This document shows, piece by piece, positions 423-17,615 of a stretch of 32,000 nt of DNA. Origin of the DNA: Halomicronema hongdechloris C2206. GTDB lineage: Bacteria; Cyanobacteriota; Cyanobacteriia; Phormidesmidales; Phormidesmidaceae. The stretch covers positions 1,380,001 through 1,412,000 of the forward strand of contig NZ_CP021983.2 in the NCBI RefSeq assembly GCF_002075285.3. Direction: 5' to 3'. The position numbers were made by a program, and so were the translations under genes. Positions within the stretch are counted from its first letter, which is position 1. Every line of letters begins with the position of its first letter. Under the pieces are notes generated by a model. That model worked only from the letters and a program-made list of their open reading frames with translations, was not told the origin of the DNA and did no database searches.

Positions 423-1469
423 TTACTCCTTGTCAGCTTGATCAGCACCAAAAGTGTCACCAATGTGCAAACCCTGGATATTGTCTCCCATGCTGATGTT
501 GTACTTACCTTTTTGATTCACAGTCTGCACTCGGTTATTGTTGCCAACGATGTTGCCCTGTCCAGTAACAATCGTTGCCCCCTGCGCGTTCTGAACCGCA
601 ACTGCGCCATCTCCTGAAGCTGCGATCGTGGTTTGAATCATTTGGCCGTTCAATTCACCAGGCTGTGACTCAATCCGAGGCTTGGATGCTAACTCAGGCG
701 GCAGGCCCTTCGGCTGCAGATCGCCTCCGGCATAGTACGCCAGCACAAAGTTATCGGCCTTCTCAATGTCCAGCACAGGGTGTTGTTTATCGCTGGTCAA
801 TGTCGGCACAATGCGGCTGGCATACATCGCTAAATCCGTCGCCCGAATGTAGCCATCTTGCTGGGTGGCTCCTTCCCCACATAATCCCTTCATCAGGGCA
901 TAGGTAAAGGCACTGTAGGGTTCTCCGGCATAGGACAACTCATCTGGCCGTGAGGAGCCAATCATGATGCGTCCGCCTCCTTTGGCAAACATCCTTTGCG
1001 CTTCCGGCGGCAGCGGAGCTTTGGTCGCTGCAAAGGCAGAGACATCACTTAATCCGCCAGCATGGCAGCAATCCAGCATCACCAGCAGTTTCTGCGCCGG
1101 AATCTCGCGCAGGTAATCCACAAACTCACTGCCGCTAATGGCGGTCTCATCCAAAGCTTCAGTGTTGTAGCCGTAGGGCATTAAAAAATAAGACTTAAAC
1201 GGCTTTTGCAGTTGGTGGCCATGTCCTGAGAAATAAATCAGCACCGTCGAATCGTCGTCGGTTGAATTCGCTAAGGTCTCCAAAGTTTGCAAAATCTGGC
1301 TGCGGGTTGCCTTTTCCCCCGTAAGGAAATGCACCTGGCTTTCTGGATAGGCACAGCGCTCGGGGTCTTGCAGAACCTTCGCCAGACCTTTAGCATCGGT
1401 GGCGGTAGTCGGCAAATCGCCACCGACTCCAATCACGCAAGCATGCCCTTGTTCAAAAAGGTGACTCAT
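423..1469 (-). CDS. Orthocaspase / peptidase C14 caspase-like protease with a C-terminal Gly/Asn-rich tail
   Basis: 348 aa with an ATG start confirmed at 1469. The catalytic dyad contexts are VLIYFSGHGH (His) and LLVMLDCCHAGG (Cys), typical of the caspase/metacaspase p20 fold. The last 65 aa (nt 426..620) read ASGDGAVAVQNAQGATIVTGQGNIVGNNNRVQTVNQKGKYNISMGDNIQGLHIGDTFGADQADKE and are not part of the protease fold. Confidence 0.85.
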   Translation of the reverse strand: MSHLFEQGHACVIGVGGDLPTTATDAKGLAKVLQDPERCAYPESQVHFLTGEKATRSQILQTLETLANSTDDDSTVLIYFSGHGHQLQKPFKSYFLMPYGYNTEALDETAISGSEFVDYLREIPAQKLLVMLDCCHAGGLSDVSAFAATKAPLPPEAQRMFAKGGGRIMIGSSRPDELSYAGEPYSAFTYALMKGLCGEGATQQDGYIRATDLAMYASRIVPTLTSDKQHPVLDIEKADNFVLAYYAGGDLQPKGLPPELASKPRIESQPGELNGQMIQTTIAASGDGAVAVQNAQGATIVTGQGNIVGNNNRVQTVNQKGKYNISMGDNIQGLHIGDTFGADQADKE

Positions 1470-3504: not shown

Positions 3505-5781
3505 TCAAGTATTCAACGGCAAGATTAAGCCATCCTCAATTTCTTGGATCAGGTGAGTATTGGAGTGATCCCCACTATGCAAGCATTCAACCAAAATATA
3601 GTTTGCATTATAGTATTCAATTAGCTTCTCTTTCTCAGCGTCAGAGAAGCCCCAGTCATAACCAAAATCGCGATACTTTACCATTAAATTTCTTAGACTT
3701 ATAATCCACTCCTCGCCGTGCTTTTGCCACCAAACGTTCATTTTTTCGGCTTCACAAGGTCCCCAAAGGCGCGTTTTCAGCCACCAGTCCGGCAATGCAT
3801 CGATGAGTTTCTGGATTTCATCGCCGATTTCCTTACTTTTCGAAAGATATGAAAGCTCATTTGGAATTATTTGTTCAAGAACGATGGGAACTGCAAATCT
3901 TAATTGGGGCGACAGAGCAGTCTTGAGATTTCTATCAACTGCAAATTCGCAAATCAGAAGCTCATCTTCTTCTGGATTTTCACCAGGAAGATGATCAAAG
4001 TTCAGATGAATTCCTAACGCATAAGGAAGCTCTGTAAAACTGTCTGAATCATCGAAAGCCAAAATCAATGCTAAAGCCCGCAAAGATGACGGTTGATAAG
4101 AGTATTTAAAGGTATTAGCTTTTCTGCTTACCCAACTCAAAAAACACTGAAACTTTTCGTCCTCAAGATAAAGATCAATCTCGTGTTTCGTTGTACGAAA
4201 TAAAGCATCTAGATCTTGAGTATTGTCTATGACGAGTAAGAATACCTCTTTCCAGTGTTCTTTATAGAGTTGTCGTGCTAAATCCTTCCAATTGTTAGAG
4301 GTATAGAATGGTCTGGAAACTAAGTACTCTTGAAAAGTTAAGTGGGAAAACGACCAGATTTCATGAGCTTGCTCAACTAAGATTCCATGCTGCTCTGAAA
4401 TACTTTCTAGTACTGCTCCACTTTCCTCGGTCGAAATCTGAAGATGCTCTGCGATGTAACTACAGGCTTCTGCTTTGTCAAATAATACAAAATTTTCTGT
4501 TTGCTCAAACTTGCGAACTGCTAAGTAGCTTAGTAATTGCTTTCGTTCCTCCAGTGTTAGTTGCCGATAGATTTCACTCTTTGTCTCTCGATTGATTCCT
4601 CGTCGGTCATCCCATTGTCCTAGCAGTAAATCCAACCCTTCCCGATACAGATCAGACCGTTTTTCTGGTAAGCACTGAGAGTCTTCAAAAATCCAACACG
4701 TCAAACTCAAGAGCACTGGTGTTACCGCAAGTTCAGCGGTTTGCGGATGTTCACCAAGCTTTTCCATGAAGTGCTCTTTTAGCGCTTCACCTTCTTCCGG
4801 TGTCTCCACTATTGCCGTAAACCAGTTCAAAGCGAAGCTTTCTACCTGCTCTGGCTTAAAGTCTGCTACCTCTATGGGGATGAACTGTTCTGGAATGTAT
4901 TTCGTCGTTTGAGTACGACAAGTCAGCACAAAGCGATTTTTGTCGTATTGTTTGGCAAACCTTCGCAGTTCATCCTGTACTTTTGGCTGTAAAACGCTGG
5001 AGACTTCATCTAGACCGTCCAACAAAACCATAACTTTTCCTTGCCTTAGAAGTTGCTTGGTTTGCTCTTCTTCGGCTAATTCAAATTCCTCATGGATATG
5101 CCGAAACAGGCTAAATTCAGCTTCATCAACATCCCGTAGCTCAAGCAAATAGGGGATGTAGTTTTCTAGAAAATCACCTTTGGCACAGCCTACTGCTAAG
5201 TGCCTCAAAAATGTGCTTTTCCCGGAACCCGGCTTCCCTAAGACCATCAACCGAGGATATTCTTCGCTTTCGGCGATTTGTAACCCCTGTAACCGCTCTC
5301 CTCTTTTTGCCAGACCCAATCGGTCAAACTGCTTTCGGACATTCTGCCCTTTAAGTAATTCTGGAATATTGGCTCGATAATCCTGTACTTCCAGAACATA
5401 AACATCTACATAAAGCTGATCGACATCAACCTGGCGTCTATTCAGGAGCTGAATCTTACCGAAATTTCTGAGGCCTTTCTCTGATGCTCGCGATCGCACC
5501 TGCTCAATAATTGAGTCAATGGGTGCTGGCGGAGGACGAAGATATTGACGAATGATTTCCGCATCGGCTCCCTCGAAGATGATGTTGCCATCACCGATGA
5601 TGTTGTGATCGCCAGTAATCAGCACTGCATTATCCGCGTTCCCCCCCATGGCCAAAGCGCGATCGCCGGTAACCAGCGTGGCCTGGCCGGATTGAATTGC
5701 CTCTACTAACTGCTGTTGCTGTTCCGGAGTTAAGGATGTGCCCACAACACGCTGAATGATGGATTTGAGGTCTTGAGGCAT
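3505..5781 (-). CDS. NACHT-family STAND NTPase with an N-terminal Gly/Asn-rich adaptor-like motif
   Basis: The ORF-track start at 5793 is a TTG. The first ATG is at 5781 (MPQDLKSIIQRV...). Walker A is LGKPGSGKSTFL, Walker B is VMVLLDGLDEV, followed by FVLTCRT. The pre-P-loop segment QLLNRRQVDVDQLYVDVYVLE is typical of cyanobacterial NACHT proteins. N-terminal aa 31-71 (nt 5569..5691) read SGQATLVTGDRALAMGGNADNAVLITGDHNIIGDGNIIFEG. The C-terminal roughly 300 aa show no WD40 or TPR repeats that I can see. Confidence 0.8.
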   Translation of the reverse strand: MPQDLKSIIQRVVGTSLTPEQQQQLVEAIQSGQATLVTGDRALAMGGNADNAVLITGDHNIIGDGNIIFEGADAEIIRQYLRPPPAPIDSIIEQVRSRASEKGLRNFGKIQLLNRRQVDVDQLYVDVYVLEVQDYRANIPELLKGQNVRKQFDRLGLAKRGERLQGLQIAESEEYPRLMVLGKPGSGKSTFLRHLAVGCAKGDFLENYIPYLLELRDVDEAEFSLFRHIHEEFELAEEEQTKQLLRQGKVMVLLDGLDEVSSVLQPKVQDELRRFAKQYDKNRFVLTCRTQTTKYIPEQFIPIEVADFKPEQVESFALNWFTAIVETPEEGEALKEHFMEKLGEHPQTAELAVTPVLLSLTCWIFEDSQCLPEKRSDLYREGLDLLLGQWDDRRGINRETKSEIYRQLTLEERKQLLSYLAVRKFEQTENFVLFDKAEACSYIAEHLQISTEESGAVLESISEQHGILVEQAHEIWSFSHLTFQEYLVSRPFYTSNNWKDLARQLYKEHWKEVFLLVIDNTQDLDALFRTTKHEIDLYLEDEKFQCFLSWVSRKANTFKYSYQPSSLRALALILAFDDSDSFTELPYALGIHLNFDHLPGENPEEDELLICEFAVDRNLKTALSPQLRFAVPIVLEQIIPNELSYLSKSKEIGDEIQKLIDALPDWWLKTRLWGPCEAEKMNVWWQKHGEEWIISLRNLMVKYRDFGYDWGFSDAEKEKLIEYYNANYILVECLHSGDHSNTHLIQEIEDGLILPLNT

Positions 5782-5907
5782 TTCTTGAGGCAAACGTCGC
5801 TATGTCGTTCTTCACAATCATACCTACTCTACTCCTCCCTCTGTGGAACTGGATCAGCGACAATTCAAGAGCTTTAATAACTTCAGTGATACATTTCCTC
5901 GCTGCAG

Positions 5908-7356
5908 CTAACGTTCTAAAGCCTCACAGCCGCTCGGGCGGATTGGACTCAGAGAATGTGTTTGCTGTAGCCGTTTTGCCTCAACCATAAATCGCTGTTT
6001 ATCTAAGTGCGTCACCTTTGATAGCTCAACCACAAATCCCCTTGCTTGAAATATCAAACCACGTGAAGCTGCTCTCACGATCAGATGCTGTCCTTCAGAC
6101 TCAAAAGTGTATGTATGGCCATGTAGCAAACGCTTTCGCGGCGACCAGTCATCCCGATCTGTGTGGTGTTTAGCTGTTTGAATAGTTGGCGATTGTCTCA
6201 AAATGTAATGCAGGTCCCTCACCACATTCTGGAGTTCTCCTCCCTTCAGATAACCCCCAGCCGATAGCTCTGCTTGATTAGTCTGTCCGATTGAAGAGTA
6301 GCTTGGATATTTGAGATGACTTAAGGCCTGCACCCGTTTCCAGGCACTCTCATCCCCACCTGCAAAAACCGCTGCTGGAATACACTTCTCGGGGTCAACA
6401 ATACTTTGAATAATCCGCTCTACCCGTTCGACATCAATTCCTAAAGCTGCCCCAGCTTCCTTCGCCAACGCCTCAGCATCTCCATTAATCGGCACCCCAT
6501 GCTCAGTAGCCCAATTCTCCCAGCCATAGAACTCGCGTAGAGCATAGGTCAGGGAGTGCGATCGCGACTCCAAGGGGCTCTCCCCCTGCAGCACCGCCTG
6601 AGCCTTGGCCGTCGCCAGGTCTTCCAGCCGTAATACTCCTGGTTGGGCAGGGTGTACCTGAATTGGGGGCCGAAGGTGAGTTGGTTCACTCTGACCTCGT
6701 CTACGGCTAACCGGATACACCCCAATCGCCTCCAACCGTTCCACCCACACGGGTGATACCCGCTGCAAGTTGACATAAGACTGTCCACTGGGGCCAATCG
6801 TTGGTGCGAGTACTGTAAAGCGTCCTTGGCCCAGGGCTTCCCCCATGTGCTGACCGCCCAACCCATCCAGCGAGAAGTTGGTGAAGCGTTTTTCTGGAAC
6901 TCGCACAGCAAACCGCCAGCCACCACTATGGGTCCGTTCTGTAAAAGTTTGCTGCAGTCGAGGATGCTGGCTGAGCCAGTGGCTGATGCGGGCATTACAG
7001 GCCTCTTGGGAGCCAAACTGTTTTACGTCCACATCGAGCCAAACCAGGTTCTGCCATCCTCCCAAAGTACCGATGCCATTGGCAGGATGAGTAAACCAGG
7101 TCCGGAACTCTTGCTCAGTCGGAAGCTGGTGCTGATATTGAGTGTGGCGGATCAGATGAGGAATGCCATTGGCATCCAGAAAGCTAGGATTTTTGCCCGT
7201 AAAAGCAGGGATTAAGGCTCCATTTGAGTCGCGCTTCAACGTGCCGTCTCGCTCCCTTGCCGGATACTGCTGAGGATGCTGAGCAGGCGCTATGGGTAAA
7301 GGGGGCAATCCCTGAGCCTTGAGCCAGTCAAAGGTTTTTCGTAAGTCTGGTTTCAT
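5908..7356 (-). CDS. Bifunctional DNA primase/polymerase (archaeo-eukaryotic primase superfamily, PrimPol N-terminal domain) with a C-terminal extension
   Basis: 482 aa with ATG confirmed at 7356. Motifs are FTGKNPS, NLVWLDVDVK (acidic metal-binding motif) and ERTHSGGWRFAVRV (the sGG.H-type motif of plasmid and phage PrimPol domains). The C-terminal 57-aa module (nt 5959..6129) is shared with two neighbouring proteins; see findings. Confidence 0.7.
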   Translation of the reverse strand: MKPDLRKTFDWLKAQGLPPLPIAPAQHPQQYPARERDGTLKRDSNGALIPAFTGKNPSFLDANGIPHLIRHTQYQHQLPTEQEFRTWFTHPANGIGTLGGWQNLVWLDVDVKQFGSQEACNARISHWLSQHPRLQQTFTERTHSGGWRFAVRVPEKRFTNFSLDGLGGQHMGEALGQGRFTVLAPTIGPSGQSYVNLQRVSPVWVERLEAIGVYPVSRRRGQSEPTHLRPPIQVHPAQPGVLRLEDLATAKAQAVLQGESPLESRSHSLTYALREFYGWENWATEHGVPINGDAEALAKEAGAALGIDVERVERIIQSIVDPEKCIPAAVFAGGDESAWKRVQALSHLKYPSYSSIGQTNQAELSAGGYLKGGELQNVVRDLHYILRQSPTIQTAKHHTDRDDWSPRKRLLHGHTYTFESEGQHLIVRAASRGLIFQARGFVVELSKVTHLDKQRFMVEAKRLQQTHSLSPIRPSGCEALER

Positions 7357-7386
7357 GGTCTTGACCCAATTGAAGAGCCGCCACGG

Positions 7387-10300
7387 TCATCGTTCTCTGC
7401 CTGCACAGGTTGCGGTCTGCGTGCGCGTAGTTTCCAAGTGCTGGGCAAACCGTTGAAAACGGTGGCAATCGTCGGCGGTAACCACTGTGCGTTGAATCTT
7501 GCCTGCCGCCATTTCCAGAATGGTTTGGGGCTGGGGGGCAACCTTGCGAACGATGAGGCGATCGCCCGTTTGCTGCAGTTCATAGGTCTTGCCGCGAAAT
7601 AGGGTGTCTGGTCCCTGGCCTTGACCGATGGCGGACAGAATATGCTGTGACACTTGGGCAACGAACTCGCCCCGCTGCTGGAAAGCTTGATATAGAGCCA
7701 TGTCTTGGGCCATGGCCTGCTGGTCTGCTGCCGCCACGGTAAAACCATGACCATTCGCATCTCTGGCAGAGATACCTAGCTGCTTAATTTTTTCCAGGTG
7801 CAGTGGGTCATGCCCTAAATCACGAGCCGCCCGATACCAGTCCCGAAGGGCTTCTAGGGTGGCAGGTGTTCCTTGCGACCGAGAGGGGAGAGCTTCAGGA
7901 ACAGCCGTCTCGAGCGTTTGAGGTGGCTCTTGGGGCTGCACCTGCCGCCTATTTGGAGGAGCCGCACTGAACTGATTGGTATCAAAGAGGCTCTGGACTT
8001 GGAACTCAGGTTCTTGCGTTTCTACCACTGTCACTGACTGAACGGGTTCTGATGTGGGGACCAGGGGCGAGGTTGCTTCGACAACTGCGGAGCTTTCTAG
8101 CTGCGTATGAACTGTGGTTTCTCCCTGCCAGTCCGCGATCGCCACCTCACTCACCTGCCTCAGTGGCTCCAGATACTTCTCCAGACTTTTCACTGGGAAA
8201 CCTGATGCTGGAATTCTCTCAGCGCCGGGAGCGGTGCATGTCTGGCTGGTGAGAATTAGATCGAGGGTTTGGGCCAGCTGTTTGGCATCATCAAAGAAGG
8301 TCTCGTAGAAGCGGCGATCGCTCGTTTGAACCAGCACCATTGCCTCGGAATGCTGGTCTTTGACGGTCAGATATTGCTGAACATCTGCGGGCAAAGCCTG
8401 CCGATCACTCTGCGTAGGGCTACCCGGAGATTGGATTTCCGGTTTTGCTGCCACCTTCTCTTCTTGGGACTCTTGCTGTTGCGCCTTGGCTGCTTCGGCA
8501 AAGCCCTGCTTCAAGATGTTCTTGGAAAAGATCTGGGCAAACTGGCGATCGGGAATACGAGATTCGCCGCCATAGGGCGTTTGCACGGCGGTCTCCTTAA
8601 ACTGCAGCTGCCCTTCTGGCAGCACCGTGAAGACCATCTCAGCGTCAATGTACATGTCGCCGTTCTGGGTCAGGTAGTGGGTTAGATACAACTCATCCCC
8701 CTGACGCTCCACAACGAGTGGGATGAAGGGCTCATTCTCAATCCGCAAGTGGAACTCATCGGTGTTCATTACCGCCTGATCAATGCCCGCCTCCCGCAGA
8801 AATCGGAGAATTCGCTTTTCCAACTGCCCCATCTGGGGATGATTGGAGCCAGTGGAGGCGCTTACCGTCGGAGCCTCAACCGTAGGTTTTGGTCCTGGCG
8901 TTTCAGTTGTAGGACTGGAGACTGGAGGTTGGATAACGTGGAGGGCAGGAGTTACTGAAGCTTTGGGTGCTGCTGCTTCCACCTTTTCCAGGCTTGGTAG
9001 GGTCACACCAAGGAACTGTCGAGCGATATCTTTGGATTCAAAAGCGGCCAGGGTGTAGTTGCGCTGATGCATTAGCACCGCTAGGGTCTGCTCCAACCGT
9101 TCGGGCGGAATAACGACTTCCATGCGATCGCCCACGGAATAGAAGTCCGATCCGGCAACAGCAATCAACCCCTCATCTAGAAAATATTTGCCTCCCGACT
9201 CCTTTGATTTGGGGGTTTGCAGCACAAAGCCTTCACCGTTGAACTGCGTTTTGAGAATCAACAGTTCATCCAGCGTTTTCACAATGCCTCGGCGGCTGGT
9301 CAGTTCCGTGATGAAGGTCATCACCTGTTGCGGAGTGCTGAAGGCCACCGGCTCTTTGGTCAGCTCTTCCTGAATGTCAAAGCCCTTGGGCATCATCAGC
9401 CCCTGGCGTACCTGCCCCTGGTAGTCGGTGTAATTCAGCAACTTGCCATTCGGGTACTTCTCAAACGCCTTGATCAAGTTGCCGGTGAAGATTTGCCGAT
9501 TGACGCGCCCGGCTTCCTGCTGCTTATCGAACAGGCCATAAACATCATTGCCGAACCAATCTTCGGTTTGAACCATGGCCTCCAATGACCCACCCCGTCC
9601 GGTATTGAACTTAGACAGGGGCACCGTCAACTGACGGACTGAATCGGCCACCAGAATCCGCAGCTTCCAGCGGTTCGGGGCAGCGGGACTGCCGGAGCGC
9701 TTCTTGGCATCAATCCCAGCGACCACCCCGTAGAAGATGGATTTGCTGGCGGGCGTGACCAACCGTAATGGCATCCCCGGCGGAAACTCCTCTAGGACGC
9801 TGGTGACATGAGCCCGTTGCTGATGGATGCGATCATTGAGCTTGTCAATGGCTTTGTCGTCCTGTTTTCCAGCGATCGCCCCCTGCCGATACTGTTCCGT
9901 GGCTGTCTCTAACTCCGCAATGGTTGCCTGGGTTTGCTGGCGGGACTGGTTTTCTAAGTCATCCCGATCGTGCTCCTCAACTGACCTCACACCGTTCAGG
10001 CCCACCTGTTCCCGTACCGCATTGATCACCTGCAACTGGGTTAGGGGCTTGGTCTGGCTCTTTGCGTCCACCATCTCCAGATAAACGGGTCCGGTAAACT
10101 CACTGCGGGTGTTGCCTTCATCGGCCACCACCTCCATTCGCGCCAGAGGACGGGCATCAAGGTCGAGTTGGTCTGCCTCCAAAATGCTCTCGCCCATGGC
10201 TCTGGCTTGGTCCACCAGGTCTCGGTATTCCGACTCAATCAGGCTGTAGAGGGCTTCCTGCTCCTCAATCGGCAGCAGGGGAATTCGCCCGGTCACCTTC

Positions 10301-12480
10301 TTAATCAGGGCGATATCGGAGGCATCGTTTTCCGCTTGGGCGGAGGGGAAGTCCAACTTGGCATTGAGTTCTGGGTCATCTGCTAGCAGTTCGGTGATCA
10401 CCTGCTCCCCGTAGGAATTCATAAAGTCCACCACGTTGTTCAGAGAGATATCCGTCTCCCGTGCGGCAGTAGTGTTGGCGTTGAGGCTAGCCATCTTGCG
10501 ACAGAGAATCGCCCCCGGTCGCTTTTCGGCAGGCAGATCGCCCATCAATAAGGTGTAGCTGGGCAGAGCCACCTGTCCGGTGCGATGGACCCGTCCCAGC
10601 ATCTGCATGAACACGTTGATATCCCGTTCGGCCTGGGCCACAATCATGTGGCGCGGACGCTGGTCGGCGAACTTTTCAGAGGCGTGGAGTGAGATGCCGG
10701 TGGAGCCCGAGCAGTTCAGGAGAATGACATCGGCATCCCCGGCGTTGAACTTGGCCACCGCATCGATCTTGCCTTTAGCCGTGGTCTCTTGATCCGATCG
10801 CACCCGATAACTCATGGAACCATCAGCCGCATAGTCAATGCCAGCTTTACGTCCAGTGACTTCAGTGACGCGGAACCCCGCTCGCTCCAACTGCTGTTCG
10901 ATGTAGTCAATCGGGCTGATAGGAATGCCGCTGAAGTCTGCTTCCCGAATGCAGTCCAGCGCCCCTTCGTAAGCAAGGACTCCTTCGGCTCCCAGTTGCT
11001 CATCCGTTAGCCGCAAGCGATTGGCCTGTCCCCGGTAGTCCTTGGTGACGACATCCCGCGATCGCTCTAGATACCGTTCCAGTAAATCCGCGAAGGAGAG
11101 ATTCATCTCATCTCCCGGCTTCAAGTCCTGGGCATCGGCATAGGCCTGAATGAAACTGCCCATGGTGTTGGCCACGGTAATCACGGGCTTTTCACAGTTC
11201 TGGAGGGCCGCGATCGCGGCCTGCACGGTGGCATCGGCCTTTTGCGCCAACAAGCCTTGCTCAATGCAGTTGTGCATCAGCGACGTAAAGTTGGTACTCT
11301 TCGCTCCGACTTCCCCGATCGCCCCATCTTCCCCAATCGCCTTGGCTTCGGCCTTCAGTTCTTTGCTGATGGTTTTGACTGCTCGTTGTTTGGCTCGGTC
11401 AAAGTCTTTGATGGCCCGCATGGCAGCGGAGAAGTCGTCTGCGACATCGCGATCTACGGGAACCGTATTGGCCTGAAAGGAGATGCCGTCATAGGAGCGC
11501 TCTCGCCGCAGCATCTGCCCGGAAGCGACAAACTTGCTGGCCACAATCTGCTGTAAGGGGACACCGCCACGGGTGAGGATATTCTCCAGTGCAGTCATGC
11601 TGCTAACGCCCAGGCGCAGGTCAGTGCGGCGAGCGTAGAGATCCATCACGTCGGGACGTTTGGCGTAGGTCGCGGAGGAGTAAAAGACGCCGGAGGACTT
11701 GTCGATCAGCTCTCGGACGAAGTCGGCCCGGTCAGGGGGACCCGCTTCCTTCCATCCCCCTTTGCTGCCGCCCGCTTGATGGGCTTCATCCAGAATTAAA
11801 ATCGCCTGGGGAGCCAGCTTACGGAGAAAGTTCCGCCGCAACGGCTCCTTCTTCCCCACCGTCTGCAGCTGGCTATAGGTGGTGAAGACAGCGCTGTAAT
11901 GCCCCAGATTGCCCCGCTGCATTATGGCCTGCATTTCTTCTTTCTGCTTCGCCGCTCCTGCCGTCTTCAAGGCCGCCCCATTAGCCAGCGGAATTTCAGT
12001 GCTGCTATCGGTAATGAAGGGGGTAAATCGCCGCATCCCGATATCGCTGACATCGCGCATCATGTCGGCGTAGAGGGGCTTGTCTTTGGTGATGAAAATG
12101 GCGATTTTGCCTTGCTGCTGGGCATAGCGCATGATGCTGGCACAGATGCGCCCTTTGCCGATGCCGGTCTGGTCGCCCGTGATAAAGCCTGCTCCCTGTT
12201 CCAAGTTACCGATCGCCAGGGCGGCAGCATCCACCTGCTCAGCACTGAAATATTGGTGCAGCTCTTCAACGGAGCCGTAGCCTAAGCGAGTCGCTAGATA
12301 AGCATCAATAGCCCCATGCTGCTGCTCGAACTGGTCGAGAGCCTGTTGAGCCGCGCTGGCCATGTTGCAGGGAATCAGCGTTTGAGTGGAGAAACCCTGA
12401 CTTTTGGGCACATAGGGCACCTGGCGGGGCTGGACATCATAGGCGTCTGAAGGGGTATCAACGGAAAGCGGGGTATTCAT
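7387..12480 (-). CDS. Strawberry-notch / SNF2-type superfamily-2 helicase, a large multi-domain ('polyvalent') conjugative-element protein
   Basis: The track ORF (7387..13074) is trimmed to the ATG at 12480 (MNTPLSVDTPS...), which has GGAG 6 nt upstream and lies 21 nt after the stop of the upstream gene. The 198 codons further upstream are Arg/Pro/Ser-rich and overlap a better ORF in another frame. Motif I is GDQTGIGKGR (nt 12151..12177). Motif II is ILILDEAHQAGG (DEAH). The helicase C-terminal region reads LLNCSGSTGISLHASEKFADQRPRHMIVAQAERDINVFMQMLGRVHRTGQ. The protein is 1697 aa and carries about 700 aa of extra C-terminal modules. Confidence 0.85.
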   Translation of the reverse strand: MNTPLSVDTPSDAYDVQPRQVPYVPKSQGFSTQTLIPCNMASAAQQALDQFEQQHGAIDAYLATRLGYGSVEELHQYFSAEQVDAAALAIGNLEQGAGFITGDQTGIGKGRICASIMRYAQQQGKIAIFITKDKPLYADMMRDVSDIGMRRFTPFITDSSTEIPLANGAALKTAGAAKQKEEMQAIMQRGNLGHYSAVFTTYSQLQTVGKKEPLRRNFLRKLAPQAILILDEAHQAGGSKGGWKEAGPPDRADFVRELIDKSSGVFYSSATYAKRPDVMDLYARRTDLRLGVSSMTALENILTRGGVPLQQIVASKFVASGQMLRRERSYDGISFQANTVPVDRDVADDFSAAMRAIKDFDRAKQRAVKTISKELKAEAKAIGEDGAIGEVGAKSTNFTSLMHNCIEQGLLAQKADATVQAAIAALQNCEKPVITVANTMGSFIQAYADAQDLKPGDEMNLSFADLLERYLERSRDVVTKDYRGQANRLRLTDEQLGAEGVLAYEGALDCIREADFSGIPISPIDYIEQQLERAGFRVTEVTGRKAGIDYAADGSMSYRVRSDQETTAKGKIDAVAKFNAGDADVILLNCSGSTGISLHASEKFADQRPRHMIVAQAERDINVFMQMLGRVHRTGQVALPSYTLLMGDLPAEKRPGAILCRKMASLNANTTAARETDISLNNVVDFMNSYGEQVITELLADDPELNAKLDFPSAQAENDASDIALIKKVTGRIPLLPIEEQEALYSLIESEYRDLVDQARAMGESILEADQLDLDARPLARMEVVADEGNTRSEFTGPVYLEMVDAKSQTKPLTQLQVINAVREQVGLNGVRSVEEHDRDDLENQSRQQTQATIAELETATEQYRQGAIAGKQDDKAIDKLNDRIHQQRAHVTSVLEEFPPGMPLRLVTPASKSIFYGVVAGIDAKKRSGSPAAPNRWKLRILVADSVRQLTVPLSKFNTGRGGSLEAMVQTEDWFGNDVYGLFDKQQEAGRVNRQIFTGNLIKAFEKYPNGKLLNYTDYQGQVRQGLMMPKGFDIQEELTKEPVAFSTPQQVMTFITELTSRRGIVKTLDELLILKTQFNGEGFVLQTPKSKESGGKYFLDEGLIAVAGSDFYSVGDRMEVVIPPERLEQTLAVLMHQRNYTLAAFESKDIARQFLGVTLPSLEKVEAAAPKASVTPALHVIQPPVSSPTTETPGPKPTVEAPTVSASTGSNHPQMGQLEKRILRFLREAGIDQAVMNTDEFHLRIENEPFIPLVVERQGDELYLTHYLTQNGDMYIDAEMVFTVLPEGQLQFKETAVQTPYGGESRIPDRQFAQIFSKNILKQGFAEAAKAQQQESQEEKVAAKPEIQSPGSPTQSDRQALPADVQQYLTVKDQHSEAMVLVQTSDRRFYETFFDDAKQLAQTLDLILTSQTCTAPGAERIPASGFPVKSLEKYLEPLRQVSEVAIADWQGETTVHTQLESSAVVEATSPLVPTSEPVQSVTVVETQEPEFQVQSLFDTNQFSAAPPNRRQVQPQEPPQTLETAVPEALPSRSQGTPATLEALRDWYRAARDLGHDPLHLEKIKQLGISARDANGHGFTVAAADQQAMAQDMALYQAFQQRGEFVAQVSQHILSAIGQGQGPDTLFRGKTYELQQTGDRLIVRKVAPQPQTILEMAAGKIQRTVVTADDCHRFQRFAQHLETTRTQTATCAGRER
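8125..8382 (-). other. MutS domain-I-like (mismatch-binding N-terminal domain) segment embedded in the helicase C-terminal region
   Basis: The segment is VQQYLTVKDQHSEAMVLVQTSDRRFYETFFDDAKQLAQTLDLILTSQTCTAPGAERIPASGFPVKSLEKYLEPLRQVSEVAIADWQ. It aligns by eye with the E. coli-type MutS N-terminus as I remember it: MQQYL.LKAQHPE.LLFYRMGDFYELF.DDAK.AS.LLDI.LT.RG...GE.IPMAG.P.HA...YLAKL...GE.VAICEQ. Confidence 0.6.
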
Positions 12481-12500
12481 AGGAGCCTCTGGGTGAAGCG

Positions 12501-13010
12501 TTACAGAGTCAGGTTGCCGAGCCAGTCCTCCAGAGTGATGTCGTCGTGAAGGTCCAGAGCGTCGGGGTAACTGGGGTGATCCGGTGCCATCGGGACGGCT
12601 GGAAAGGTCAGGCCGTAGTGCCGCATCCGGTCTCGAAATCGCCAGTTGCTGAGGATCAAGGTCTCGCTCCACTGCTGCCGCCACTGGCTCAGGGCGAACT
12701 CCGGATCGGCGTCCGACTCCAATAGGGGGATTGCCTGGGCGGCGTCCAGCTGACTGAGATGGGTTGCGAGTAGCTGCTGAGTTTCGATTTGAGACGTGGC
12801 TGCGGCCCAGTCCTGAATCAGCTGGTCTAAGCGCGTCTGCATCAGGGCCAAGTAGATGGGTTCCTGCAGGCTCTCCAGATCCGGCGGCACTTTGACGATA
12901 AATAACACGCCCATCGCTTCCGGCTGCCAAAGGTAGGGAAAGGTGGGATATTGGGCGGTCATGAAGGGATAAATCCAGCGAGATTGGGTGTAGGTGTCGG
13001 AGGGATTCAT
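12501..13010 (-). CDS. Hypothetical acidic protein between the methyltransferase and the helicase
   Basis: 169 aa from the ATG at 13010 (MNPSDTYTQSRWIYPF...). AAGGAG lies 10 nt upstream. The sequence is rich in aromatic residues and looks globular, unlike the overlapping frame. It is in the same reading frame as the methyltransferase, separated from it only by the TAA at 13110..13112 and 33 codons. Confidence 0.55.
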   Translation of the reverse strand: MNPSDTYTQSRWIYPFMTAQYPTFPYLWQPEAMGVLFIVKVPPDLESLQEPIYLALMQTRLDQLIQDWAAATSQIETQQLLATHLSQLDAAQAIPLLESDADPEFALSQWRQQWSETLILSNWRFRDRMRHYGLTFPAVPMAPDHPSYPDALDLHDDITLEDWLGNLTL

Positions 13011-13109
13011 GGGGCAATTGCTCCTTAAGTTCGGCAAACGTTTGATAGATGGTAGGTACCTGGGCAGCGGGCAACGGGCGATCAGCAGGTCCTTTTCCTT
13101 CAATGACAA

Positions 13110-13970
13110 TTAGATCAATGGAAAGCCTGCGCCTTGCTTGCGGTAGAGGTCACCTGAAATCGACAGATGCTGCGTGACCCGATACTGCTGATACAGGAGG
13201 TAGTAGAAGGCGCGACTTTCGCGGGTGTTATAGCGCTCCGAGCGGAGTTCCTCCTCATGGCCTCGCTTCCCGCCGAGAATCAGTACAGCTCGTCCTTCGG
13301 GTTTCATGACCGATAGCGCCTTTAGAGCAATCACCTGGTCAATTTGGGTCGTCCAGGTGTCGGCGATGGGGAAGCGGCGGGTGTGAAGCTGCTCGTCTTT
13401 GACGGAGCCAAAGGGGGGATTGCAGATGATGACATCATGTTGCTGGTGGGGTTGGTACTCACTGGCATCAAACTGAGTGACGGAGTAGCCTTGTGCCCGC
13501 AAATCAGCCGCGCGATCGGCGTTGAGTTCATTGACGGTAGCTTTAGCCGGATCCGTTCCCAGCAGTAATGCACCATGTCCGGCAGTGGGTTCGTAGACGG
13601 TCTTGTCTGGTGTGACTCCCGCTAAGGATGAGGCCAGAAACGCGATAGGGATGGGGGTGCTGTAGGCCTGCTGCAGAACGCTGGTGGAGGAGCGGACATT
13701 GAGAGCCGGTTGGCGATCGTGCAAGTCCACTAGCCGATCATAGGTGTCGTGAGTCGTAGTTGAGGTTTGGAGGATTCCCTGAGCGGTTCTCACCACCCCA
13801 GCTTCCACGGCTTCATCCACCTGCTTGGCCAGCGCCGTACCCGGAAGCACCGGTTCACCTAACACCGCAGATGCCTGCTGACGAGCCTGGGTGATCGTGG
13901 CAAAGCTCCCCCCCGCCCCCAAGTGACGGGCAAAGAATTCCACCAGTTCCGGCTGATGTGCCATCCCCAT
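13110..13970 (-). CDS. N6-adenine DNA methyltransferase (gamma-class motif order), of the type usually fused to strawberry-notch helicases on conjugative elements
   Basis: 286 aa with ATG at 13970. The AdoMet-binding motif-I-like segment is VYEPTAGHGALLLG, and the catalytic motif IV is VIICNPPFG. The protein ends at ...RKQGAGFPLI. Confidence 0.75.
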   Translation of the reverse strand: MGMAHQPELVEFFARHLGAGGSFATITQARQQASAVLGEPVLPGTALAKQVDEAVEAGVVRTAQGILQTSTTTHDTYDRLVDLHDRQPALNVRSSTSVLQQAYSTPIPIAFLASSLAGVTPDKTVYEPTAGHGALLLGTDPAKATVNELNADRAADLRAQGYSVTQFDASEYQPHQQHDVIICNPPFGSVKDEQLHTRRFPIADTWTTQIDQVIALKALSVMKPEGRAVLILGGKRGHEEELRSERYNTRESRAFYYLLYQQYRVTQHLSISGDLYRKQGAGFPLI

Positions 13971-15884: not shown

Positions 15885-17615
15885 CTAAAGCAAACTGCCG
15901 TACTTGTCGATTAGATCAGCGGGGTCAGGATAAGCGGAATTCACGGGGGCAGGCGGTTCCGGCAGCATCGATTCCACCAGTTGCCGCCGTCGCTCCAAGT
16001 CTTCCGTGGTGGGGACTCGTTGGGGACTGCGCTGCATCAAGCGAGCTTGAATCTTGGCCCAGAGCGCTTCGCTGGCTTCTGTCGCCTGCAGATCCGCCTT
16101 GGGAATCTTGATGGTCTGCCGAATCGGGATAGCGGCTTCTCCTTTGGAGGTAAAGCCCGGATTAATCAGGACGCACTTTCCTTGAGGCAGCCGGAGAAAC
16201 TGGCTCGGTTCAAACAGCTTGCGGGTGCGTTCCTGCTCAGAAATCGTGGTGCTGGACTTGCCGCCCCCGCGATTGCGAGATTTCTGCTTGTAGCGGATCT
16301 CTTCGTCCCCTAGAAAGTCGGAGAACATCCGAGCGGCTTCATACTCCTGAGGATTGAAGATGGCCTTGGTGGCACAGGCTCCCAGGATGGCCCGTGCTAA
16401 TTCGCGCCCATAGGTTTTCTCTAGCTGCACTAGGTTTTGAAAGCCCAGGATGACCGACAGTCCATCCTCTCGGTTTTCGTTCAGCCACTGCACTAGAGTC
16501 GGCAAATACAGCGTCGGCAGCTCGTCGATCGCGACAATCAGCGGATCTTGCCGTCGCTTCGCCACATTACGAGTAACGATCATGTGCAGGACGGTTGCCA
16601 CCAAGGGACCAACCACGTCCCGCCGTTCCCGATCCATTCCAAAAATCAGCAGCTGCTTGCCTTCTAGTTCTAGAGGAATCGAGGTCCGACCACAGAAGCT
16701 GCCCAGGACACCTTCCTTCATAAAGCGGGTAAAGGTTTCGCTGGCGCTGCCGACAATGCCGCTAGCAGTTTTCTCCGCATCCTTCACCCCAATTAGCTGG
16801 TTGAACGAGACGCGAATCCAACTGTTCATGTCCTTGGCTGCGGCGATGCGATTCCCCAGATTAGTTAGTCCCAGTACCGCCTGAGCGGTCATGATATCGG
16901 GATACTCGGTAGACTTTGCCAGCATTAACAGCGCTTCGGTAAGCTGATCTCCGGCAGCGGCAAAGAAGCCATCTTCGCTGCTCTGGGTCATCAGCCGGAA
17001 GTTCTTGTTCAACACGGTGGCAATCTGCCGCGCCATTTCCGCATCCGACTCACTGCGTAGGAAATCGATAGGATTACACACGCCGGACTCGGGAAATCCA
17101 GGAGCCAGAACATGGACCTGGTAGCCCAACTTGGCCGCATAGGCCGCATGGCGAGCACTCTGAGTCGGATATTTGAAGTCGTACAACGCGACGGGCAGTC
17201 CTTGCTCTAACGCAGAGCGAATCAACGGGTCGATGACACTGAAGGTCTTACCAGAACCCGGTCCCCCACAAACAGCCACACCCCGTTGTAAATCCGGTAG
17301 ATAAATTGACCGGGCATCTTTCGGGCGTTGAGGTTTGCCGATATAGAGGGAGACCGCATTGTGTTTACGGGCCGTTAGTTGCTTTACAGCTCGCTTGCGA
17401 GCCGCTCCTTTTTCTTTGGCGCTGCCAAAGCGACTGGTGGCCAGCTTGCCCTTTTTGCGATCGCCCAACAGGGCAAAGACCCCCACCAGCAAACAGCAGC
17501 CCAACAAAACTAGGCCATTGCGGGACTGGAGGGAGGAAGCCAGCTGGGAAAAGGACTCGCTAGCGGCTGGATTCGTTTGCGCCAAGGTAGCAGGCTGTTC
17601 TGTAAATGTCTTCAT
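15885..17615 (-). CDS. virD4: Type IV secretion coupling protein (VirD4/TraG/TraD family)
   Basis: 576 aa. The N-terminal TM is GLVLLGCCLLVGVFALLG. Walker A is CGGPGSGKTFSV and the Walker B-like motif is PLIVAIDELPTL. The start forms an ATGA overlap with the upstream gene at 17612..17615. Confidence 0.85.
   Translation of the reverse strand: MKTFTEQPATLAQTNPAASESFSQLASSLQSRNGLVLLGCCLLVGVFALLGDRKKGKLATSRFGSAKEKGAARKRAVKQLTARKHNAVSLYIGKPQRPKDARSIYLPDLQRGVAVCGGPGSGKTFSVIDPLIRSALEQGLPVALYDFKYPTQSARHAAYAAKLGYQVHVLAPGFPESGVCNPIDFLRSESDAEMARQIATVLNKNFRLMTQSSEDGFFAAAGDQLTEALLMLAKSTEYPDIMTAQAVLGLTNLGNRIAAAKDMNSWIRVSFNQLIGVKDAEKTASGIVGSASETFTRFMKEGVLGSFCGRTSIPLELEGKQLLIFGMDRERRDVVGPLVATVLHMIVTRNVAKRRQDPLIVAIDELPTLYLPTLVQWLNENREDGLSVILGFQNLVQLEKTYGRELARAILGACATKAIFNPQEYEAARMFSDFLGDEEIRYKQKSRNRGGGKSSTTISEQERTRKLFEPSQFLRLPQGKCVLINPGFTSKGEAAIPIRQTIKIPKADLQATEASEALWAKIQARLMQRSPQRVPTTEDLERRRQLVESMLPEPPAPVNSAYPDPADLIDKYGSLL

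Follow-up and report, generated by a model that had tools for sequence, protein, structure and literature searches.

A MutS domain I homologue captured in a strawberry-notch polyvalent protein of cyanobacterial conjugative elements

Introduction

On the minus strand of a stretch of the genome of the cyanobacterium Halomicronema hongdechloris C2206, a large gene encodes a strawberry-notch helicase in which an initial annotation had placed the mismatch-recognition domain I of MutS (MutS_I). The stretch, hereafter termed the window, comprises 32,000 nucleotides of contig NZ_CP021983.2 (positions 1,380,001 to 1,412,000), and all coordinates below refer to it. The gene is part of a conjugative element and is directly followed by a gene for a Prim-Pol primase/polymerase. 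In the following, the domain is described as a genuine homologue of MutS domain I, and its possible functions within the element are weighed.

MutS-I has been recognized as a DNA-binding domain of the polyvalent proteins of conjugative elements by Iyer, Burroughs, Anand, de Souza and Aravind (2017, J Bacteriol 199:e00245-17; PMC5512222). Outside MutS, the domain was said to occur nowhere but in polyvalent proteins, and its range was given as Bacteroidetes and Firmicutes, with the ArdC-N domain co-occurring in about 80% of the cases (PMC5512222). Strawberry-notch-like ATPases, Toprim and Prim-Pol primases and the methylase-helicase dyad are likewise mentioned in polyvalent proteins, and the primases TraC1 and Sog are thought to enter the recipient and to prime complementary-strand synthesis there (PMC5512222). 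A framework of polyvalent proteins, of primases such as these transferred along with the DNA and of MutS-I as a module that binds DNA had been published (PMC5512222), and the novelty that the initial annotation had implied for a MutS-I domain in this setting did not hold. What is new here is the lineage and the architecture, whereas the captured MutS domain as a phenomenon has been known since 2017.

Results

A MutS domain I without the remainder of MutS

The feature is located on the minus strand, which corrects the initial annotation: translation of this strand across 8125-8382 exactly matched the peptide that had been quoted, and the plus strand contained many stops in the same interval. 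The segment corresponds to residues 1565-1650 of the long open reading frame (ORF) 7387..13074(-). It matched the Pfam family MutS_I (PF01624) with 49.8 bits (E 4.7e-13) over profile positions 4-86 of 113, compared to a gathering cut-off of 20.6 bits, and the MutS_I segment alone (114 amino acids, aa) scored 53 bits. A phmmer search against the PDB sequences aligned it with residues 14-100 of Escherichia coli MutS (E 3.2e-12). The NCBIfam MutS equivalogs matched the helicase protein with 60 bits, at cut-offs of 480-642 bits, and only over their first 90-107 or so of 793-840 positions. No matches to Pfam MutS_II to MutS_V were obtained within the helicase protein. Connector (II), core (III), clamp (IV) and ABC ATPase (V) are all absent after domain I, as the annotation had stated. 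The ATPase and clamp domains that define MutS were looked for and are absent, and the helicase protein is accordingly not a MutS.

The identification was borne out by structure prediction. An AlphaFold2 model of the 126-aa MutS_I segment reached a predicted local distance difference test (pLDDT) score of 83.6, and a Foldseek search with this model returned bacterial MutS domain I as the top 24 matches (E 2e-7). Against the PDB, the 50 significant matches belonged exclusively to the MutS family (bacterial MutS, followed by human MutSβ), with the domain I structures of E. coli and Taq ranking first. The best E. coli structures superposed with a root mean square deviation of 1.8-2.3 Å over 90 columns at 39-41% identity in the Foldseek alignments. 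As the alignment behind this model consisted mostly of true MutS sequences, the C-terminal 496 residues were remodelled with an alignment restricted to the cyanobacterial family. The second model, which contained no true MutS in its alignment, displayed the same fold, and MutS domain I was again the only significant match, ruling out that the fold was an artefact of the MutS sequences. Chance similarity was ruled out by the profile, PDB and fold evidence. Thus, 8125-8382 encodes a genuine homologue of MutS domain I that has been captured without the remainder of MutS.

The domain shares with MutS (MutS1) domain I (E. coli residues 2-115; PDB 1E3M, 1EWQ) the alpha/beta fold to within about 2 Å over some 90 residues, and the elements Phe-x-Glu, D-A, L-T, the G-[IVF]-P loop and the Y-L helix. 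The mismatch-contacting Phe-x-Glu of E. coli MutS (F36-Y37-E38) aligned with FYE in the window protein and is retained, in agreement with the annotation. It is preceded by a two-residue insertion (SDRRFYETF here vs GDFYELF in E. coli). Both the Phe-x-Glu wedge and the G-[FIV]-P loop are kept. However, the window protein lacks connector, core, clamp, ATPase and helix-turn-helix, R58 and Q95 of MutS are not kept, and a short hairpin (GETTVHTQ) stands in place of the last beta-strand of domain I (VERKVVRIVTPGT), which in MutS connects to domain II.

Table 1. Position and strand of the features of the helicase gene and its neighbours in the window
Feature	Position	Strand	Evidence or remark
MutS domain I	8107..8388 (Pfam envelope 8125-8382)	minus	Pfam, NCBIfam, phmmer, AlphaFold2 model, Foldseek
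Phe-Tyr-Glu codons	8302..8310	minus	mismatch-contacting Phe-x-Glu, aligned with E. coli MutS
QVQSLF, conserved short linker motif, candidate beta-sliding-clamp-binding	7984..8001	minus	about 40 loci
Strawberry-notch polyvalent protein gene, 1697 aa	7387..12480	minus	start ATG 12480
AAA_34, first strawberry-notch ATPase lobe	11443..12198	minus	Pfam 75.2 bits
Helicase_C_4, C-terminal strawberry-notch helicase lobe	10189..10872	minus	Pfam 93.6 bits
DUF6908	8497..8817	minus	Pfam 65.8 bits; directly upstream of MutS_I
Disordered linker, MutS_I to C-terminal domain	7873..8094	minus	pLDDT <50, segment residues 262-335
C-terminal H domain (LRDWYRAARDLG...ER)	7393..7860	minus	folded in AlphaFold2 model
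Prim-Pol primase/polymerase gene	5908..7356	minus	directly downstream; Pfam Prim-Pol 39.7 bits
Small conserved gene, 169 aa	12501..13010	minus	upstream; start ATG 13010; no family match
N6-adenine methyltransferase-like gene	13110..13970	minus	Pfam N6_Mtase 24.7 bits; PADLOC mad2/MTase_I
ORF, 510 aa	13974..15506	minus	between coupling protein and methylase; 55-91% identity across loci
VirD4/TraG-type type IV coupling protein	15885..17615	minus	marks conjugative context

The host gene and its conjugative surroundings

The host protein was confirmed as a strawberry-notch helicase by its Pfam matches to AAA_34 and Helicase_C_4 (Table 1). C-terminal to these two lobes lies a long middle region, after which come DUF6908, MutS_I, a linker (about 75 residues, predicted to be disordered) and a C-terminal domain of about 155 residues, referred to as H. 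The protein thus unites a strawberry-notch helicase, DUF6908, MutS_I and H in 1697 aa, as is characteristic of polyvalent proteins. The TTG at 13074, at which the long ORF begins, was rejected as a start in favour of the ATG at 12480: the N-terminal 198 codons of the long ORF (12481-13074) represent out-of-frame junk rich in R, P and S over a separate small upstream gene, and the domain offsets in a homologue of 1724 aa (P0008) agree with the ATG start. DUF6908 was modelled as a folded alpha+beta domain. No PDB relative was found for it by sequence or fold, and a literature search gave no paper on it. For H, there was no Pfam match and no PDB relative by sequence or fold. An ORF of 135 aa at 7353-7760 (-) covers the end of the helicase gene in another frame and is probably not a gene; its apparent conservation of 30-44% in relatives tracks that of the main frame. 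No PADLOC family matched the helicase protein at E values up to 0.001, and a role as a defence system was rejected on this basis.

The conjugative setting described in the annotation also stood. In addition to the coupling protein, the genes upstream on the same strand include an M23 peptidase and TrbI/VirB10, and an ORF of 937 aa showed weak, sub-threshold VirB4/TraC-like matches. The host locus is a conjugative element with a type IV secretion cluster. The 510-aa ORF gave no match in Pfam, NCBIfam or PADLOC. The small gene upstream of the helicase gene occupies the same position in relatives; starting from its own ATG, it is a separate gene, and the idea of an in-frame stop or of readthrough from one to the other of the ORFs 13110-13970 and 12501-13109 was rejected. 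Adjoining the transfer region are a gene for a caspase/CHAT-like peptidase (423-1469 (-)) and a gene (3505-5793 (-)) for a NACHT NTPase with an EAD10 N-terminus, an NCH2 C-terminus and a match to PADLOC PDC-S60. Both genes look like defence cargo of the element.

A cyanobacterial family of related proteins

A profile search of 1.84 billion representative proteins yielded 5451 matches, and the best non-fragment matches among these were not MutS proteins. Pfam scans of the relatives revealed a recurring architecture, [N6_Mtase]-AAA_34-Helicase_C_4-DUF6908-MutS_I-[DUF3991-Toprim], in which the proteins with added N6_Mtase and DUF3991-Toprim reach up to 2256-2578 aa. The same architecture is annotated on two complete plasmids from cyanobacteria, pB of Chroococcidiopsis sp. 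CCNUC1 (WP_250017822.1) and plasmid1 of Leptolyngbya sp. NIES-3755 (BAU15915.1). In a scan of one genome per species, the DUF6908 family was found at 64 loci, all of them cyanobacterial and often several per genome, in Nodosilinea, Leptolyngbya, Phormidium, Thainema, Kaiparowitsia, Elainellales, Brasilonema and Chroococcidiopsidaceae. The closest locus is that of a Thainema metagenome-assembled genome, whose helicase core is 96% and whose MutS_I is 87% identical. The gene order coupling protein, 510-aa ORF, methylase, small gene and helicase protein is conserved. In the Chroococcidiopsis and Leptolyngbya relatives (L002, L003, P0018), N6_Mtase is joined to the helicase N-terminus.

Many copies of the gene are broken by insertion sequence (IS) elements (DDE_Tnp_1 in L001, IS66 in L004) or by frameshifts. 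The former locus, on a JGI contig, holds a copy that is 93% identical, and at another site two copies lie on one contig in a large inverted duplication (L045/L046). In the genomes of cyanobacteria, these elements are subject to rapid decay. Proteins of 80-195 aa that had appeared as stand-alone MutS_I in the first homology search turned out to be fragments of the large gene cut by frameshifts or IS elements, and matches on Acinetobacter plasmids were IS-flanked mutS fragments rather than polyvalent proteins.

The survey of MutS_I outside MutS and MSH proteins recovered several other architectures. These comprised ArdC-N-MPTase-MutS_I proteins with one or two MutS_I copies (P0019 and P0083 are of this type), a DndB-MutS_I fusion associated with phosphorothioation (P0075), a protein with DarA_C and three tandem MutS_I (P0039) and a 3504-aa LPD1/LPD38 protein (P0127). 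In tailed phages, proteins of 74-153 aa are annotated as MutS domain I or DNA mismatch repair protein (BFVD A0A8S5PPT8, A0A8S5PL02, A0A8S5L9N2), and in a fold search of viral proteins their predicted folds matched the model of the window domain. This suggests that predicted stand-alone MutS_I modules occur in phages, and free MutS_I modules would therefore be more widespread in mobile elements than stated in 2017. A profile search of a set of 5.8 billion proteins with diverse captured domains was swamped by partial true MutS and was used for alignment depth only. In a neighbour-joining tree of 68 domains (100 bootstraps), the deep nodes that bear on one or several captures from MutS were unsupported.

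Conservation of the mismatch-contact motif

Among the relatives, 39 further MutS_I copies were collected through DUF6908 and not through MutS_I itself, the window's own copy being additional. F-[YF]-E was invariant in all 39 and in the window, none contained stop codons, and their identity to the window domain ranged down to 37%. The motif was also kept in 19 of 19 internal MutS_I domains of unrelated architectures, which is the weaker evidence because the profile used for their selection itself contains the motif. Conserved positions common to MutS and the captured domains are F36, Y37, E38, G70 and P72, and the MutS-specific positions R58 and Q95 are relaxed in the captured versions. Phe-x-Glu is absent from the MutS paralogues MSH2 and MSH3, neither of which makes contact with the mismatch (PMC3848065). 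As judged from the aligned copies, the intact mismatch-contact motif was shown to be under purifying selection. This conservation favours the recognition of distorted or mismatched DNA that the annotation had proposed, the binding itself being something that we infer.

We tentatively propose that MutS_I acts as a sensor of DNA distortion within a C-terminal arm that helps to prime and replicate the incoming strand, and give this proposal somewhat less than an even chance. The fold might also be kept merely for structure or for binding of a partner, so that the domain would be a protein-protein adaptor or an inert spacer that does not contact DNA. Its optional occurrence among relatives (see below), its acidity and the disordered linkers on either side would be in line with such a role. 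The residues that are invariant in all captured versions are, however, precisely the DNA-contacting Phe and Glu and the G-x-P loop, while it is the positions conserved only in MutS, R58 and Q95, that are relaxed. This pattern is the opposite of that expected for a spacer, and an adaptor or spacer appears very improbable.

MutS_I as an optional cassette next to a conserved linker motif

Among the relatives, about 40 loci with a complete C-terminal arm have MutS_I, always between DUF6908 and either Toprim or H. The domain is missing in L045/L046, despite 92% helicase identity, in L048 and in L053-58, and also in stand-alone DUF6908-H proteins (P0284-7, L048). As several lineages do without it, MutS_I is an optional cassette. 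Its identity to the window domain did not follow that of the helicase: L019 displayed 59% helicase vs 85% MutS_I identity and L006 88% vs 47%, and the same held for L018, L019 and L021 (MutS_I 78-85%, helicase 59%) and for L006-L015 (MutS_I 43-48%, helicase 88%). These mosaic identities therefore indicate recombination at the level of domains between lineages of the element.

The linker that follows MutS_I is variable in sequence and length, and its sole conserved element is a short motif of the QVQSLF type within the segment of low pLDDT. Bacterial motifs that bind the beta sliding clamp follow the consensus QL[SD]LF, as in QAMSLF of the delta subunit and QLNLF of UmuC, and MutS itself binds the clamp through QMSLL. 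Variants of the linker motif are QLSLF in the Chroococcidiopsis plasmid copy (L002, position about 15450), QLNLF in L065/L066 (L065, about 10650) and QPSLF in L033-35 (L033, about 10870). The linker peptide EPEFQVQSLFDTNQF with its QVQSLF is thus a candidate beta-clamp binder by its resemblance to the Q-x-x-S-L-F and Q-L-[SN]-L-F forms of such peptides. It departs from the clamp consensus in that the Q is absent in some family copies (GETLFDL, EASLFDL).

The annotation had further suggested that the module might recruit host factors. The conserved clamp-binding-like motif adjoining the domain lends this indirect support, but the motif belongs to the backbone of the protein and not to MutS_I, as it is also found in copies without the domain (L045, L048, L053, L057, L058). 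The same observation bears on a role as a decoy, in which the domain would occupy mismatches, or compete for the clamp or for partners in the recipient, and thereby block host MutS and relax a barrier to recombination or establishment. Mismatch repair is a barrier to recombination after conjugation, the residues that contact the mismatch are kept, and the motif lies next to the domain, all of which would suit a decoy. Besides the occurrence of the motif without MutS_I and the absence of MutS_I from close relatives, it speaks against this role that blocking anti-recombination is of little benefit to a plasmid or integrative and conjugative element (ICE) that relies on replication or on site-specific integration, and that a single domain I should be a poor competitor of MutS, which is dimeric and closes its clamp. 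We therefore regard interference with mismatch repair as quite unlikely, if somewhat less so than a spacer.

Primase-linked C-termini

The C-terminus of the family occurs in two forms. In the first, a DUF3991-Toprim primase is fused to the protein (L003, L004, L017-L032) and a Prim-Pol gene never follows; in the second, the protein ends in the H domain (window, L005-L016), and a separate Prim-Pol gene follows wherever downstream sequence is available. The Prim-Pol gene takes the functional place of the fused primase of the relatives. The two primase solutions are mutually exclusive and represent a clean case of non-orthologous displacement. H-like domains were also found after Prim-Pol (L033, L035, L052) and after Toprim (L056, L061). 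In addition, a weak homology (E 6e-4) links the C-terminus of the window Prim-Pol (5911-6129 (-)) to the C-terminal half of H, with ...ER at the end of both. These occurrences mark H as a primase-associated domain, which may serve as a shared docking or export domain.

The position of MutS_I next to this primase-linked arm is relevant to a further possibility, namely that the domain, like ArdC-N, coats the transferred single strand and shields it from nucleases of the recipient, as an anti-restriction function that does not guide replication. Such a function has been inferred for MutS-I in polyvalent proteins (Iyer et al., 2017; PMC5512222). It would fit the N6-adenine methyltransferase-like gene in the same operon, as a methylase paired with a helicase is a typical anti-restriction module in conjugative elements, and the existence of the ArdC-N-MPTase-MutS_I architectures described above. 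However, no ArdC-N was found in the helicase protein or in seven ORFs of the window at E values up to 1, nor in the other neighbours tested at up to 0.01; MPTase is absent as well. A single domain per protein cannot coat DNA, MutS_I is positionally tied to the primase-linked arm and not to the methylase end, and the strict conservation of Phe-x-Glu suggests contact with a single base rather than generic binding of single strands. Coating is accordingly considered rather unlikely, and the role as a distortion sensor is pursued below.

Discussion

The captured domain is found in a fixed order of elements, DUF6908, MutS_I, a disordered linker with a clamp-binding-like motif, and a primase-linked module. 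We propose that MutS_I has been inserted as an optional cassette into the polyvalent strawberry-notch helicase of a cyanobacterial family of conjugative plasmids or ICEs. The protein would accompany the transferred single strand into the recipient or act on it there, as has been proposed for polyvalent proteins generally, and its C-terminal arm would help to turn this strand into duplex DNA. As an accessory sensor, MutS_I could insert its Phe beside an unpaired, mismatched or weakly stacked base, e.g., in imperfect hairpins or at junctions of single-stranded and duplex DNA. In this way it would place the arm where priming and clamp-dependent synthesis begin, with the linker motif recruiting the sliding clamp.

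Several points weigh against the sensor proposal. The function that we favour is inferred for a captured MutS_I, and an isolated domain I may bind DNA weakly because the DNA affinity of MutS needs the clamp domains and dimerisation. The net charge over the core is about -6.5 in the cyanobacterial domains compared to -2.5 in MutS domain I; as a test of DNA binding, the charge was rejected as uninformative since MutS domain I is acidic as well. MutS_I is absent from close relatives and is therefore not essential to priming, and its slot could be merely a permissive linker. The transfer of the protein to the recipient is assumed, and the clamp-binding role of the linker motif is read from its sequence alone.

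A bolder version would regard the entire C-terminal arm as a self-contained module for establishment in the recipient, assembled from DUF6908, MutS_I, the clamp motif and a primase or primase-docking domain. It would amount to a mini-MutS, consisting of a sensor of mismatches or distortion and a hook for the beta clamp, that has been rewired to a primase: it would sense imperfect hairpins or junctions on the incoming strand, recruit the host clamp and start the complementary strand, and the H domain shared with Prim-Pol would serve as a module for docking or for export by the type IV secretion system (T4SS). We hold this version to be improbable to about the same degree as the coating of single strands.

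Like the MutS-I proteins of Iyer et al., the window protein carries an excised domain I within a very large polypeptide of many domains that is encoded by a mobile element of the T4SS type. In both cases, the domain is accompanied by a SWI2/SNF2-type helicase, a primase and an adenine methylase, which is either fused or adjacent, and an accessory DNA-binding function on the transferred strand is predicted for it. The window protein differs from these proteins in that every named source of its family is cyanobacterial, in lacking ArdC-N and MPTase, in the rarer strawberry-notch type of its helicase, and in the fixed partner DUF6908 and the fixed slot before the primase-linked module. A functional analogy, which extends to the C-terminal arm only, may be drawn to TraC1 of RP4 and Sog of ColIb/R64, as conjugative-element proteins that carry or recruit a primase. 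In contrast to these, the window copy has no fused primase and instead an adjacent Prim-Pol gene, and the likeness is not based on sequence beyond the Toprim family in the relatives.

The findings extend the published range of captured MutS sensor domains in polyvalent proteins to a third phylum and to a different architecture. The capture of the domain alone will not surprise specialists, but the optional cassette, the exchange of primases and the clamp-like motif are testable handles, and close relatives with and without the cassette, combined with two interchangeable primase solutions, constitute a natural experiment on a free-standing MutS domain I. The elements are abundant and present in multiple copies in filamentous cyanobacteria and may matter for genetic tools in these organisms, although the practical value is modest. 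If the domain does target distorted DNA and the motif does bind the clamp, the family would reveal how host replication is set up on the incoming strand by a conjugative element, at the step of complementary-strand synthesis in the recipient, which is poorly understood in conjugation.

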